This document shows, in pieces, positions 31,204-35,857 of a DNA stretch of 64,000 nucleotides; position 1 is the first letter of the stretch; each line of letters opens with the position of its first letter. This DNA comes from an uncultured bacterium (GTDB lineage: Bacteria > UBP6 > UBA1177 > CALOFP01): assembly GCA_942492635.1 (NCBI GenBank), contig CALOFP010000001.1, forward strand, positions 799,039 to 863,038, read 5' to 3'. A program made the position numbers and the translations under genes. Under the pieces are notes generated by a model. That model made no database searches. It worked only from the letters and a program-made list of their open reading frames with translations, and had not been told where the DNA came from.

Positions 31204-34173
31204 ATGAAGCAGACCTTTTTATTACTTTTCCTCGTGGCGGCCCTTTTCAACGCATCATGTTCCGGAGACAGTTCCAAGGGTGACGAATCAGGCACAGCTT
31301 TGGATATGGATCAGGGCACGGATGAAGATCAGAAAAAAGCGGAAAATGTTGACCCTGCCGAAGAGAGCGACAAGCCAAACCCGGATGTAGCAGATGAGGA
31401 TCCGACAGAGAATCCCAAGGACGATAACAATCCATCAGGAGAAGAATCAAAAGACGATTCGGAGAATGAAACCGAAAACGATAAAGACATTAATGATTAT
31501 CCCGATAATTCAGACGAAGTCGATCAGGACATCCCTGAAGACAACGATCCAATATCGGATGAGGATAACGATCCTGCAGACCCATGCAATCCCAATCCCT
31601 GTACGGAAACAAACAGAACCATCTGTTCTGTCAAAGAGGGTACCGTAATCTGTTCCTGCGACAACGAATTCCATGAAGAAGAAGAAGAAAGCTGCGTTTC
31701 CGATAAGAAGATGGTTCAATGCAGCGAACTAACAATCGATCACGGCACAATAAAAAAGGCAGATGTCGAAATTTCATGGGACGGCCAGAAATGGAGCGAT
31801 CCTGCAGAATGCGATTGGACATGCGACAACGGTTTTCACAAGGAGAACAAAAACTGTCTCTCAGATACGAAAGAGGTGGACTGCAAAGACTCGGCACCAA
31901 CTGATGCTACGTCAAGTACGATACCCGTTACAGTCACGTGGCAGACCGACCATTGGAGCGACCCCGCCGATTGCGAATGGATCTGCAAGGACGGATTCAA
32001 GAGAGAGGGAAACGGCTGTGTAGAAGGAGTTGAGTGCAAACCAAATTCATGTAACGGACGCGGAACATGTTCTGTGGAAAACGATGTTGTAAAATGCGTC
32101 TGCGACGATCACGCAGAAGGAGATCTCTGCGAATCCTGCGAATCTTCCTACGCACCTGGAGCCTCCGGAGCTTGCGTCTACCCGGGAAACACATGTGATC
32201 TTCCCAAGGCTGTCATAACCGAACCCGGAGAATATCTGGCATCAACCTACTCCTACAGATATTCGGACACATATCAGGGCAACGCGTCAAAGGACATTGT
32301 TTTCGAAATAAAACTTGAGAGATCCTTAGTTCTCGTGGCTGAAGTAGTTCCTTATGAAGATTACGAATATCCCAGACCGCTGAAAAAATCTTTCATATAT
32401 CTGGACAGCGTCTGCGGAGACAACAGCTCCAACATCAAGAAAGCTACCAACACCGGCTACTTCACCAAATCAAAGGTGACAGCCACACTGGATCCAGGAA
32501 GTTACTACATTGTTGTCGAAGGTGCCGCCGATGAATATACAGGAGGATGGTCCAAAGGTGATTTCAAACTTAAAGTTGCCATGGCTGAAAACCCCTGTAT
32601 ACCTTTAAATCCATGTACCGAAGAGCACCGCACTGTGTGCAGCGATGAAAATGTTGACGGCGTTGCAGAGTGTTCCTGCGATGAAGATTATCATCTCGAA
32701 GAGGAAAACTGCGTTTCAGATAAAAAGACGGTCCCATGCAAGGATGAATCTCCGCAAAACGCCACCCCCGTAGAAGCCGACATGGAGATAATCTGGACCG
32801 GAAGCAGCTGGCCGGAAGCTATCTGCGAATGGAACTGTGATTCAGGATTCCATAAAGTTGAAGAAAGCTGTGTAGAAAACAGTGTCTGCAACTATCCTGA
32901 AAATCCATGCAAGGAGATAAACAGGACAACATGTACCGTCGATGGAGCTGCCGCTGAAGGCTACACATGCAGTTGTTCCCCAGGTTTTATAGAAAACTCT
33001 AACGGCGAATGCAGCCCACTTTTCAGAAACAACTGTGATGAATCGGGCACAATGCCGGCGATCACATCCTCAATTACAATTGAGGGCGACACTTCAATCG
33101 AAGGAATAACAAACGACCTTACAGATCAACCAAGCAACGATATTCTCTACAAGCTGGTTTTCGACAAGAAAATGAATCTGCGCGTCACGGTCACTGCCGA
33201 CTTCGATGCAGTACTCTACTTCAGCGACACCTGCGGGACCCAGGAAAACAAGGTGGACACAAGCGGCGTCGAAACTTACACTTCAGCCGTTGAAGCCGGA
33301 ACATACTTCATCATGGTCGATGGATACAGCAGCTACAACAAGGGAAAATTCACTATGGAGGTTAACCTTGTCGAAGATCCCTGTGCTCAAGCAAATCCCT
33401 GTACATCAGCACATCAGGGAGTTTGTACCGACGACGACCTGGACGGGATTGCAGAATGCGGATGCGACACCGACTTCCACATGGAAAACAACACTTGTGT
33501 TTCCGATACAAAGCAGGTTCAGTGTGCAGACAATGCCCCGGAAAATGCAACAGCAAATATTGTCGACGTGGACGTTACATGGAACGGATCTACATGGGCT
33601 GAACCTGTTGAGTGTTCCTGGAACTGCAACACAGGATTTCATGAAGAAAACGGAATCTGCGCAGCAAACGATGCATGCCACAGTCCGGCAAATCCCTGTA
33701 CAGAAACAAACAGAACCTCATGTCAGCTTGACGAAACGGCTCCGGAAGGATTTTTATGCCAATGCGATCAGGGACTTTTTGAGGATGAAAACGGAGCGTG
33801 CATATCCACATGGAGGGACAACTGTGAAGAAAAAGATACGATGCCTGCAATCACGGCATCCGGAACCTATAGCGGAGATACATCCCTGGATGGTTTAACA
33901 GATTTCTGCACTACCCAGAGTGCAAAAGACGTTATCTACAAAATCGTACTCGAAGAGGAGAAAACCGTTTCTTTAAAGCTGTCGGGAGCTTTTGACGGCG
34001 TACTCTACTACAGCGACACATGCGGTGCTGAAGATAACAAAATAGATAAAGCAACTGCCAGCGGATATGAAACATTTTCAGGGACGCTAGCTGCAGGTAC
34101 ATACTACATCGTCGTTGATGGGTATTACAACACATCAACAGGAAACTATACACTTGAAATAACTATCGAATAA
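31204..34173 (+). CDS. large cysteine-rich surface lipoprotein with EGF-like modules, a repeated ~50-aa W/C-rich domain and three PPC (pre-peptidase C-terminal)-like domains
   Basis: An AGGGAGG RBS is followed by a lipobox signal ([19 protein letters not shown]) and an acidic low-complexity N-terminus. [14 protein letters not shown] modules and the TWxGxxWSxPxxCxWxCxxGFH unit each recur several times. The start is set at the internal Met, not the track start at 31138. Confidence 0.75.
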
Positions 34174-34183
34174 GGAGAAGCAG

Positions 34184-35857
34184 ATGAAAAAAACCATTAT
34201 TTTGACTCTCATCCTGATTGCCATGTTCGCATTCGGATGCAGTGACAGCAGTTCAAAAAAAGAGAATCCGGACAACAAAACAGGTATTGAAAATAGCGAC
34301 TCCGACTCAGCATCTGACACATCGGACAAGGATGAAGACAATTCCGGCGACAACGGTGATTCAGGTGACAGCGGCGATTCAGGTGACAACGGCGATTCAG
34401 GTGACAACGGCGATTCAGGTGACAACGGCGATTCCGGTGACAACGGCGATTCAGGTGACAACGGCGATTCAGGTGACAACGGCGATTCAGGTGACAACGG
34501 TGATTCAGGTGACAGCGACGATTCAGGCGACAGCGGCGATTCAGGGGACAGCGGTGATTCCGGTGACAACGGCGATTCAGGAGATTCCGGTGACTCCGGT
34601 TCAGACGATGATTTTGAAGTTCCTGAAGGATGTACTGAAATCACCGTCAAAAAGTGGGATATGGAACAGCCTTCAAATAACGAACCTTTTGTTTTTGCAG
34701 AGATAAACGACTTCGGAGTTATCGGGGATCCCGATCTGCTGGGACTTTACCTTTGGGGTGGAGAAAATTATAAAAACAAAACTTTGCCTCTCGAATTTGA
34801 TCTCAGTGCCGACCACAATAAAAGCTTTGTTGACGGCACGGAAATTGTCTTTCTAAATCAAGATCTTAACTACGAAATGGTACCCGACAGAGTTTTCTAT
34901 CAGACAGAAGGAAAATTGATACTGAAAAAAGTCAAACTGATCGAATACACCAATGGAGACGGCGAAAAAGAAACATCCGCAACCTGGGAATCCGCCGGAA
35001 CAATAAAAAATGTTGTACTCAGGGAAGCAAAATTTGCAGGAAAAGATGTCACTATAATTTACGGTGGCAAATGTCTCTACATCAAAGAATCTTCATGGGA
35101 TACGATGATCGACTGCACACCGGAAACCGAGGAAACCGACTGCACAGACCAGGCAAAACCTGTCTGCAACGGAGAAATCCACAAGTGTGTGGAATGTCTT
35201 GTCAACAGCCAGTGTCCGAACGATAAAATGTGTAATCCCGAAACAAACACTTGCATCGACAGAGAGTGTATGAGCGATGCCGACTGCACCGAAAATGGAA
35301 AACCGGCATGCGGATTCAGCAAGGAAGATTACGACGGAAAATGCGTCGAATGCAGCAAGGATGAGCACTGCGGAACAGGGGAAATCTGCAATGTGGAATA
35401 TCACTACTGCCGAAATGAGTTCGGAAAAGGCAACACATGCAACGAAGGCGACGACATCGAAACAATCAAAGCATCCGGAACATTCACCGTCAATACGGAG
35501 GATGACTTCGGAACTTACACAAACGACTACAAACCCAATGCTCAATGCTCAAATCCGGATAAAACCGGCTCGGATTACGTTTACAAGCTCGTACTCGATA
35601 AACTATCCGACATCGTTATAGAAACAACAAAAGCTCCTTACGGTAACGAATCTGTAATCTACCTCGGTAAAACCTGTGGAGCCAGCGACGTAGCATGCAA
35701 CGACAACATAAGCTCCACCAATCATCTCAGCAAAATTGAGAAAGAGAACCTCGAACCCGGAACATACTACCTCGTACTCGATGTATACAACGGTTTCGGA
35801 ATGGACGGTAGCTTAGGAGAGTTCAAAGTCGATGTCAAAATAACACCTAAACAGTAA
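34184..35857 (+). CDS. lipoprotein with (GDSGDN)n acidic tandem repeat, Cys-rich modules and C-terminal PPC-like domain
   Basis: It has a GGAG RBS and a lipobox ([19 protein letters not shown]). About 80 residues consist of GDS/GDN triplets. The C-terminal region resembles the PPC domains of the upstream gene. Confidence 0.75.
34340..34600 (+). repeat. in-frame tandem repeat (9-nt unit GGCGATTCA/GGTGACAAC, 18-nt super-unit), about 29 copies
   Basis: The repeat is directly visible in the sequence. It accounts for the spurious repeat-containing ORFs on the opposite strand and in the other frame. Confidence 0.9.

Follow-up and report, generated by a model that had tools for sequence, protein, structure and literature searches.

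The 64,000-nucleotide stretch of an uncultured bacterium's genome considered here (contig CALOFP010000001.1; hereafter the window) encodes, in two genes which we denote p1 and p3, eight copies of a tryptophan- and cysteine-rich unit, the W/C module, which is a genuine and so far unnamed extracytoplasmic repeat domain of about 55 residues. The original prediction, made from the sequence alone, had pointed out such a unit of about 50 residues and found no name for it, and apart from the exact length both observations are borne out. A hidden Markov model (HMM), derived from the motif given there and refined on the copies of the window, detects four copies in p1 (residues 164-218, 218-272, 503-556 and 765-819), four in p3 (residues 505-560, 560-615, 615-673 and 673-731) and none in p2, the gene that follows p1. 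A six-frame scan of the entire 64 kb with this HMM returns exactly these eight copies, each with an E-value between 1e-18 and 1e-24, which is far beyond chance.

Sequence, shape and distribution of the W/C module

In an alignment (A1) of 25 module copies, drawn from p1, from p3 and from three homologues found in databases, residues C1, C10, W29, W34, C40, C44 and C55 are invariant, and P15 and W42 nearly so. Among 626 copies from 152 proteins, conservation likewise resides in C1/C55, N4, K6, V8, C10, P15, N17, A18, V25, I27, W/Y29, W34, P37, C40, W42, C44 and Y/F48, the other columns being variable. The consensus reads xVSxTKxVxC-x4-PxNA-x6-VxVTW-x4-WxxPxxCxWCxxG[FY]Hx5-6C, with three conserved Trp, one Tyr/Phe and a P-x-N-A turn in each module. 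Adjacent copies are 52-64 residues apart in 419 of 520 cases, and the last Cys of one module is therefore the first Cys of the next. The Cys residues of p1 can be accounted for as six per EGF-like unit, four per module and one pair per pre-peptidase C-terminal (PPC)-like domain, so that each module owns four Cys, which, we infer, form two disulfides; since the module Cys are 99-100% conserved, an analysis of their co-loss yields no information on the pairing. AlphaFold2, provided with A1, gave a confident model of one unit (copy 4 of p1; pLDDT 94.1) comprising four short strands.

Neither Pfam nor NCBIfam, searched with the full-length proteins, has a match on the module, and module-only sequence searched against Pfam at E<=10 brings up no more than noise (Antistasin, zf-FCS and, at 13.7 bits, TSP_1). 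Among 57 other module-bearing proteins, a Pfam family covers the module in none (0/57). Searched against the chain sequences of the PDB, the A1 profile yields no hit: its best E-value is 0.65, and chains of complement factor H, a protein built of Sushi/CCP repeats, come at E~3. Foldseek searches with the model retrieved no thrombospondin type 1 repeat (TSR), no Sushi/CCP and no EGF structure, a fold search of the viral database BFVD gave only noise, and when the literature was searched for the module, the papers returned dealt only with eukaryotic EGF and LDLR. The module does not qualify as TSP_1, its 13.7 bits falling short of the cut-off of 21.6 and the WxxWxxW motif and the six-Cys pattern being absent from A1, nor, by sequence or by fold match, as Sushi/CCP.

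One may ask whether the module is merely a divergent, elongated EGF-like domain, in which case its novelty would fall. EGF domains are characterized by six Cys, paired C1-C3, C2-C4 and C5-C6, within ~35-40 residues. Comparison of profiles by hhalign aligns the module with the EGF-like units of p1 (CNPNPC type; see below) with 78% probability over 17 columns, and with 87.6% over 12 columns when the module profile comprises 556 copies; moreover, modules directly follow EGF-like units and have the terminal Cys in common with them. However, what is aligned is the module tail C-x2-G-[FY]-H-x5-C alone, that is, the last 12-17 residues, while the complete module has four Cys of its own and not six, 55 residues and not ~37, and C-x-W-x-C in place of C-x-C, and no model of the Pfam EGF clan reaches E<0.03 with module-only sequence. 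We thus consider an EGF identity of the entire module quite improbable, and conclude that it is an unnamed domain with an EGF-like C-terminal end. A new fold is not claimed, because fold searches have difficulty with small domains rich in disulfides.

The W/C module is rare among proteins: an exhaustive HMMER search of 1.84 billion (1.84e9) cluster representatives identified 325 proteins at E<=1e-3, of which 176 are at E<=1e-10 and 78 at E<=1e-30. When these proteins are rescanned with the HMM (domain E<=1e-3), the number of copies per protein has a median of 4 and a maximum of 13. The domains that accompany the module comprise PPC, LTD, C-type lectin, LRR, peptidase C11, alpha-amylase, FGE-sulfatase, CBM26, PKD and RHS/YD shells, and a canonical lipobox, defined as a signal peptide ending [LIVMFWSTAG]2-[LIVMFYSTAGCQ]-[AGS]-C, is present in 80 of the 129 full-length module proteins. 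In GTDB species representatives, a degenerate DNA pattern gave at least 117 stretches, and the HMM then confirmed at least 26 loci; among the matches listed, the label is nearly always Myxococcota, Myxococcales, Polyangia, Kofleriaceae, 'Deltaproteobacteria' or unclassified 'bacterium', and the GC content of the confirmed loci ranges from 27 to 68%. One database protein, P0001, has 9-10 module copies, is 39% identical to p1 and is probably a third module paralogue in the genome that carries p1 and p3.

The genes p1, p2 and p3 and their neighbours

The sequence of the p1 product, including the start of the gene, agrees exactly with a record in NCBI. The protein starts with a lipobox-like signal sequence and an acidic linker, which are followed by an EGF-like unit, two modules, a laminin-type Cys-rich region, a PPC-like domain and, twice in succession, the series EGF-like unit, module, EGF-like unit, PPC-like domain (Table 1). 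The alternation of modules with EGF-like units of CNPNPC type, which the original prediction had assumed for both module genes, is indeed found in p1, where a regular expression picks out five such units with six Cys each, but not in p3, where the modules form one tandem block, flanked by EGF-like units of a different subtype devoid of PNPC. Judged by profile comparison, the CNPNPC units are genuine EGF-like domains, as had been proposed: their profile (A5) matches the solved EGF domains of MIC6, fibrillin, Notch, factor X and LDLR with E-values from 1e-3 down to 1e-5, and in a single-sequence Pfam search EGF_2 scores 18.1 bits on p1, below its cut-off of 22.1.

The PPC-like domains, of which p1 was correctly predicted to have three and p2 one, are about 120 residues long and carry the signature ...LYFSDTCG.... 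Their profile (A3) matches PDB sequences 5iku (7.4e-5) and 2luw, 4hpk, 1nqj and 1nqd (6e-4 to 9e-4), that is, collagen-binding domains of clostridial collagenases and a PPC domain, with the collagenase domains at E 7e-5 to 8e-4. The Pfam family PF04151 is matched at E<=1 by 7 of the 11 PPC-like copies, the best of which scores 22.2 bits and does not reach the gathering threshold of 25.9 bits. The PPC assignment stands, as a distant homology.

The p1 gene was found in one other sample, with 99% identity over 351 residues, and its casting as a dominant surface antigen of the organism is not supported. Frames 33206-33898 (+), 34135-34650 (-), 34218-34706 (+) and 35093-35545 (-) lie within p1 and p2 in alternative registers; we rejected them as genes, their low-complexity translations looking like by-products of the repeats.

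Table 1. Location of the features discussed, in window coordinates, and the evidence for each (ORF, open reading frame; aa, residues; iE, independent E-value as reported; A1, A3 and A5, profiles of the module, the PPC-like domains and the CNPNPC units)
Feature	Coordinates	Strand	Evidence or remark
Regulator (Reg_prop beta-propellers, Y_Y_Y, transmembrane segment, AraC-type helix-turn-helix)	28152..31040	+	Reg_prop 1.3e-55, Y_Y_Y 9.7e-16, HTH_18 8.4e-15
p1	31204..34173	+	989-aa ORF; exact sequence in NCBI
p1 signal peptide	31204..31260	+	ends FNAS|C19, near-canonical lipobox; N at -3 breaks PROSITE-style rule
p1 acidic low-complexity linker, aa 20-127	31261..31584	+	translation; Cys-free; presumed flexible tether
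p1 EGF-like unit 1 (CNPNPC type, 6 Cys)	31585..31695	+	A5 HMM 51.4 bits
p1 module copy 1	31693..31857	+	A1 HMM 74.6 bits, iE 3.3e-22
p1 module copy 2	31855..32019	+	A1 HMM 74.9 bits; head to tail with copy 1, boundary Cys in common
p1 laminin/EGF_2-type Cys-rich region, 9 Cys	32017..32193	+	EGF_2 18.1 bits, EGF_LMN_ATRN 15.5 bits, both below Pfam cut-off
p1 PPC-like beta-sandwich domain 1	32185..32586	+	A3 HMM 116.6 bits; BLAST to PPC copy 3 8e-11
p1 EGF-like unit 2	32596..32712	+	A5 HMM 47.2 bits
p1 module copy 3	32710..32871	+	A1 HMM 66.5 bits
p1 EGF-like unit 3	32899..33012	+	A5 HMM 32.4 bits
p1 PPC-like domain 2	33022..33372	+	A3 HMM 132.1 bits
p1 EGF-like unit 4	33382..33498	+	A5 HMM 41.8 bits
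p1 module copy 4	33496..33660	+	A1 HMM 79.5 bits; copy modelled by AlphaFold2, pLDDT 94.1
p1 EGF-like unit 5	33685..33801	+	A5 HMM 30.8 bits
p1 PPC-like domain 3	33811..34170	+	A3 HMM 135.4 bits; Pfam PPC 22.2 bits vs cut-off 25.9
p2	34184..35857	+	557-aa lipoprotein ORF, 10 bp 3' of p1
p2 (GDSGDN)n linker repeat	34341..34581	+	TRF: 18-bp unit, 13.4 copies, 91% matches
p2N, conserved domain of ~165 aa	34619-35113	+	homologues: gene following P0002 in L001; P0171, in two regions
p2 Myxococcus-type Cys-rich repeats, aa ~311-415	35114-35428	+	TIGR04201 20.4 bits vs cut-off 25; weak TraA match
p2 PPC-like domain	35429-35845	+	A3 HMM 116.8 bits
Teneurin-like ORF, 2178 aa	53459..59995	-	partial Fn3, TTR, YD shell, RHS core, Tlde1-like C-terminal toxin
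IS200/IS605-type element (approximate ends)	59990..60624	-	tnpA 60072-60539; Y1_Tnp 127.2 bits vs cut-off 23
p3 (partial in window)	60613..63951	-	residues 76-1187 of P0158 except non-ATG first codon (1111/1112)
p3 module copy 4	61759..61935	-	A1 HMM 63.5 bits
p3 module copy 3	61933..62109	-	A1 HMM 60.7 bits
p3 module copy 2	62107..62274	-	A1 HMM 74.1 bits
p3 module copy 1	62272..62439	-	A1 HMM 79.1 bits

The p2 product consists of a lipobox (FAFG|C19, canonical by the rule given above), a (GDSGDN)n linker, the domain p2N, Cys-rich repeats of a type known from Myxococcus and a PPC-like domain. Its expected resemblance to p1 extends to the PPC-like domain but not to the Cys-rich units, which are of the Myxococcus type and yield no HMM match to either the module or the CNPNPC units; a homologue of p2 from another locus, P0171, matches DUF4215. 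The linker repeat is a likely site of copy-number variation. Matches of p2 to Pfam Collagen and NCBIfam Scl/Lcl were rejected as Gly-X-Y low-complexity artefacts of this linker, and a homologue search with the whole of p2 returned mostly matches of the same low-complexity kind. The domain p2N recurs at the locus L001 (10920-11450), twice in P0171, there beside a PPC-like domain, and once in the metagenomic locus L173. A word-index homologue search with p2N alone gave nothing, no family could be assigned to it, and AlphaFold2, run from three sequences, arrived at a pLDDT of 34 and no usable fold.

p1 and p2 have the same orientation and are 10 bp apart, and the arrangement is repeated at L001, where P0002, a homologue of p1, and the gene after it are likewise separated by 10 bp; that gene encodes a 515-residue lipoprotein whose N-terminal domain is 28% identical to that of p2 (3e-20). 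Probably, the two genes p1 and p2 constitute an operon. A single strong terminator-like hairpin, GC-rich with a T-run, was called, on the minus strand at 36076-36097; it sits between p2 and a convergent gene (36120-36704), and is probably a terminator common to both convergent genes.

A one-component membrane regulator without kinase or receiver domains ends 164 bp 5' of p1 on the same strand, and possibly the operon is under the control of this upstream sensor. At the locus L119, a homologue of the regulator (5167-8001), 31% identical over its full length, is located two genes from P0171, and an LTD protein, a heparinase II/III-like gene and a UDP-glucose dehydrogenase gene are present there as well. 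No regulator of the Reg_prop/Y_Y_Y/AraC type was seen at L001, and among 80 metagenomic loci with a PPC-like domain neither the regulator (0/80) nor the W/C module (0/80) was found. The link of the regulator to p1 and p2 is suggestive only.

The full-length p3 protein, of which the window holds the larger part, is on record in NCBI (P0158; 1187 residues) and has a signal peptide without a lipobox. A signal peptide is thus present in each of the three proteins at full length, as had been expected, but the original prediction of a paralogous family of giant surface lipoproteins does not hold as it stands: the lipobox is canonical in p2 and near-canonical (FNAS|C) in p1, and the description is wrong for p3, which is apparently the N-terminal half of an RHS toxin disrupted by an insertion sequence (IS) of IS200 type, and 'giant' is a generous word for proteins of 989, 557 and 1187 residues. 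The signal peptide of p3, located outside the window, is followed by an N-terminal domain, an EGF-like block (62437-63384), the four modules, two short Cys/Trp motifs, EGF-like units (61288-61395), an Fn3-like domain (60700-61002) and the first strand of a second Fn3 domain, which is cut by the IS. The short Cys/Trp motif, C-G-x-N-x2-G-x3-R-x-C-x2-G-x-W-x2-W-x2-C, is found twice in p3 (residues 746-808; 61525-61716, minus strand) and 3-5 times in other module proteins (P0003, P0012/P0156), with no Pfam match seen. A likeness of the N-terminal domain to the endonuclease/exonuclease/phosphatase (EEP) fold was considered and dismissed, being supported neither by Pfam nor by PDB sequences.

The IS has the Y1 transposase of the IS200/IS605 family and, read in the sequence, a hairpin near each end. 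On its far side lies an open reading frame of 2178 residues (hereafter the RHS frame) which scores above the Pfam cut-offs for TTR_TEN1-4 (38.7 vs 27), TEN_YD-shell (104.5 vs 50) and RHS_repeat (58.1 vs 22), so that p3 and this frame, taken together, qualify as a teneurin-like YD/RHS protein. In the window, no single frame runs from stalk to toxin, a stop codon (60613-60615) and the IS being located in between. We nonetheless deem it likely that p3 is the front half of a teneurin-like toxin split by the IS. The two parts appear to have once been one gene because the RHS frame has neither ATG, start context nor signal peptide, opens inside the right-end hairpin of the IS and matches fn3 from profile position 17, that is, in mid-domain; because p3 closes with ...PTWPADATIHADPKSFGA, similar in sequence to Fn3 strand A, and then three codons and a stop codon where the IS is inferred to have its left end; and because ...SFGA and VVVDWNQ... 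can be joined in frame, by which the fn3 match becomes slightly longer. In addition, the database protein P0127 combines modules, TTR_TEN, TEN_NHL and TEN_YD-shell in a single polypeptide that is collinear with the hypothetical fusion, and P0142 and P0156, the latter from the P0012 cluster, members of which bear the NCBI name 'RHS repeat-associated core domain-containing protein', likewise unite modules and a YD shell. Alternatively, p3 and the RHS frame could be naturally separate genes, with p3 encoding a secreted EGF/module protein that is complete in itself and the IS200 located between genes. This would agree with p3 having its own stop codon and a C-terminus, …AMIE, that recurs in a second assembly (P0157), and with the small gain in the fn3 match upon joining (16.2 vs 15.1 bits). 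It does not, however, account for an RHS frame that lacks a start and begins in mid-domain within the IS hairpin, for the strand-A-like end of p3, for the in-frame join or for the three undivided proteins, and we hold it to be rather unlikely.

The ~140 residues that follow the RHS core (53459-53900, minus strand) resemble Tlde1, a domain that targets peptidoglycan, with a Tlde1_dom score of 22.8 bits, below the cut-off of 30.1. Overlapping the 3' end of the RHS frame is a very hydrophobic frame of 238 residues (52750-53466, minus strand) without a Pfam match, which could be an immunity protein. Further along, an IS21-family transposase gene (46847-48400, plus strand) is followed by a frame of 252 residues (region 46847-49155). 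At 50-54 kb, the GC content is 33-35% and the GC skew strongly negative, a composition suggesting that the DNA surrounding the toxin locus was acquired recently.

Proposed role of the module arrays

As a reading of the whole, we regard it as reasonably probable that the module is a stalk element, p1 an adhesin or capture protein, p2 its partner and p3 the stick of a toxin. The four Cys of each module would pair into two disulfides, and these small four-stranded modules, stacked head to tail without linkers, would build up a stiff rod, a spacer keeping functional domains away from the membrane anchor in the way that EGF, CCP and TSR arrays do in eukaryotic matrix proteins. p1 would be exported via Sec, probably anchored by a lipid at Cys19 and tethered by its acidic linker of ~100 residues, and its rod of five EGF-like units and four modules would present three PPC-type beta-sandwiches. 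These are the likely ligand-binding parts, so that p1 would be a multivalent adhesin or ligand-capture protein, for which p2, with one PPC-like domain and p2N, may serve as partner lipoprotein. In p3, the module would form the 'stick' of a toxin-on-a-stick, that is, of the teneurin-like RHS protein split by IS200. We infer, in short, rigid spacer arrays, PPC-like binding parts and surface exposure of the proteins.

The main alternative is that the module itself binds a ligand, be it carbohydrate or protein, and that the arrays provide avidity as do repeats of CBMs or lectins. The module has conserved aromatic residues (W29, W34, W42 and Y/F48) and is met in company with CBM26, alpha-amylase and C-type lectin domains, the regulator 5' of p1 is of the glycan-sensor type (Reg_prop/Y_Y_Y), and L119 holds the heparinase II/III-like and UDP-glucose dehydrogenase genes. 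The aromatic residues are, however, more simply understood as the core of a 55-residue domain with two disulfides, conservation is limited to Cys, Pro, Asn and hydrophobic positions, no CBM or lectin in Pfam or PDB resembles the module, and the module is found in functionally unrelated proteins, including RHS toxins and a peptidase. A binding function of the module is in our opinion unlikely, and as far as sequence can tell, its conservation pattern and linker-free tandem arrays fit a spacer better than carbohydrate binding. The spacer role is likewise supported by the great diversity of the partner domains, by the linker-free spacing in 419 of 520 cases, and by conserved columns that are confined to Cys, Pro, Asn-Ala and aromatic or aliphatic residues.

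Several points nevertheless weigh against the spacer proposal or parts of it. The disulfide connectivity and the geometry of the rod are deduced and not seen; the three conserved Trp and the Tyr could form a sugar-binding face instead of a core; and partners and neighbours related to carbohydrates recur (CBM26, amylase, lectin, the heparinase-like gene of L119 and the glycan-sensor-type regulator). Furthermore, the lipobox of p1 is non-canonical, and p1 might be secreted or periplasmic instead of surface-anchored, while the regulator accompanies the genes at two of three loci and at none of the 80 metagenomic loci with a PPC-like domain.

Wider context and likeness to known systems

Elsewhere in the window (4656-20326, minus strand), relatives of the Glt gliding proteins of Myxococcus (GltG-, GltE- and GltC-like), a TolQ/ExbB-like protein and large TPR proteins are encoded together with genes for polysaccharide export, one for an export protein and one for a tyrosine kinase like Wzc, which would fit an organism of Myxococcota type. 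The AgmX/PglI C-terminal domain exceeds its cut-off, and the GltG-, GltE- and GltC-like matches stay below their equivalog cut-offs.

The W/C module is a compact repeat domain missing from Pfam and NCBIfam for which a family seed is now at hand (25 copies in the seed, over 550 distinct copies and 325 protein clusters) and which would improve the annotation of large 'hypothetical' surface proteins in uncultured bacteria resembling Myxococcota. As a common stalk, it ties adhesin-like lipoproteins to RHS 'toxin on a stick' proteins. Bacterial EGF-like repeats located N-terminal to a teneurin-type scaffold of TTR and YD shell also bear on the question of how the teneurin ectodomain was assembled; such repeats already precede the scaffold in bacteria, and therefore deserve a phylogenetic look. 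That the EGF 'stick' of animal teneurins arrived with the bacterial gene and not from a eukaryotic receptor, the W/C module being a lineage-specific stalk with a fold not yet in the PDB, is a speculation to which we would give very little credence at present. The claim made here is modest: the module is a new small repeat domain within the familiar class of mosaic disulfide-rich surface proteins, and current understanding is not overturned.

Among known systems, the EGF domains of Notch, fibrillin and factor X are like the module in being small, disulfide-bonded extracellular repeats in linker-free arrays, and their C5...C6 sub-domain aligns with the module tail. However, the first ~40 residues of the module (C10, P-x-N-A, V-x-V-T-W, W-x2-P) have no EGF counterpart, and ~55 residues with four own Cys and three conserved Trp are foreign to EGF. 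TSR and Sushi/CCP domains are likewise Trp-containing, Cys-rich extracellular beta modules of ~50-60 residues in tandem, and Sushi domains in particular also have four Cys and a W...P.C motif at the end, but the module has neither the WxxWxxW motif of the former nor the Cys spacing of the latter. The PPC-like domains of p1 and p2 have the motif G-T-Y-Y-[IL]-x-V in common with PPC (PF04151) and the collagen-binding domains of ColG and ColH, from which they differ in residing in lipoproteins that are not proteases, in a conserved Cys pair and in scores below the Pfam gathering threshold.

The receptor TraA of Myxococcus xanthus, which serves cell-surface recognition, carries a PA14 domain on a Cys-rich stalk (PMC3325183, PMC3820747, PMC6372800). 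p1 and p2 resemble it in broad lineage and in the proposed logic of their design, with a distal binding domain held at the cell surface on a long stalk of Cys-rich repeats, but have another type of repeat, no PA14 domain above threshold, no MYXO-CTERM and a probable N-terminal lipid anchor. Finally, there are the teneurins and the bacterial teneurin-like YD/RHS 'toxin on a stick' proteins, and according to review the bacterial relatives resemble teneurins only from the carboxypeptidase-like domain onwards (PMC6297184, PMC5851990). p3 and the RHS frame, when joined, offer EGF-like repeats, Cys-rich modules, the carboxypeptidase-like TTR domain, a YD shell, an RHS core and a C-terminal toxin, a likeness to which P0127 adds TEN_NHL. 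The gene differs in being apparently broken by IS200 and in encoding Fn3 domains and the W/C module, both absent from teneurins, and its toxin is not GHH but Tlde1-like, with a score below the cut-off.

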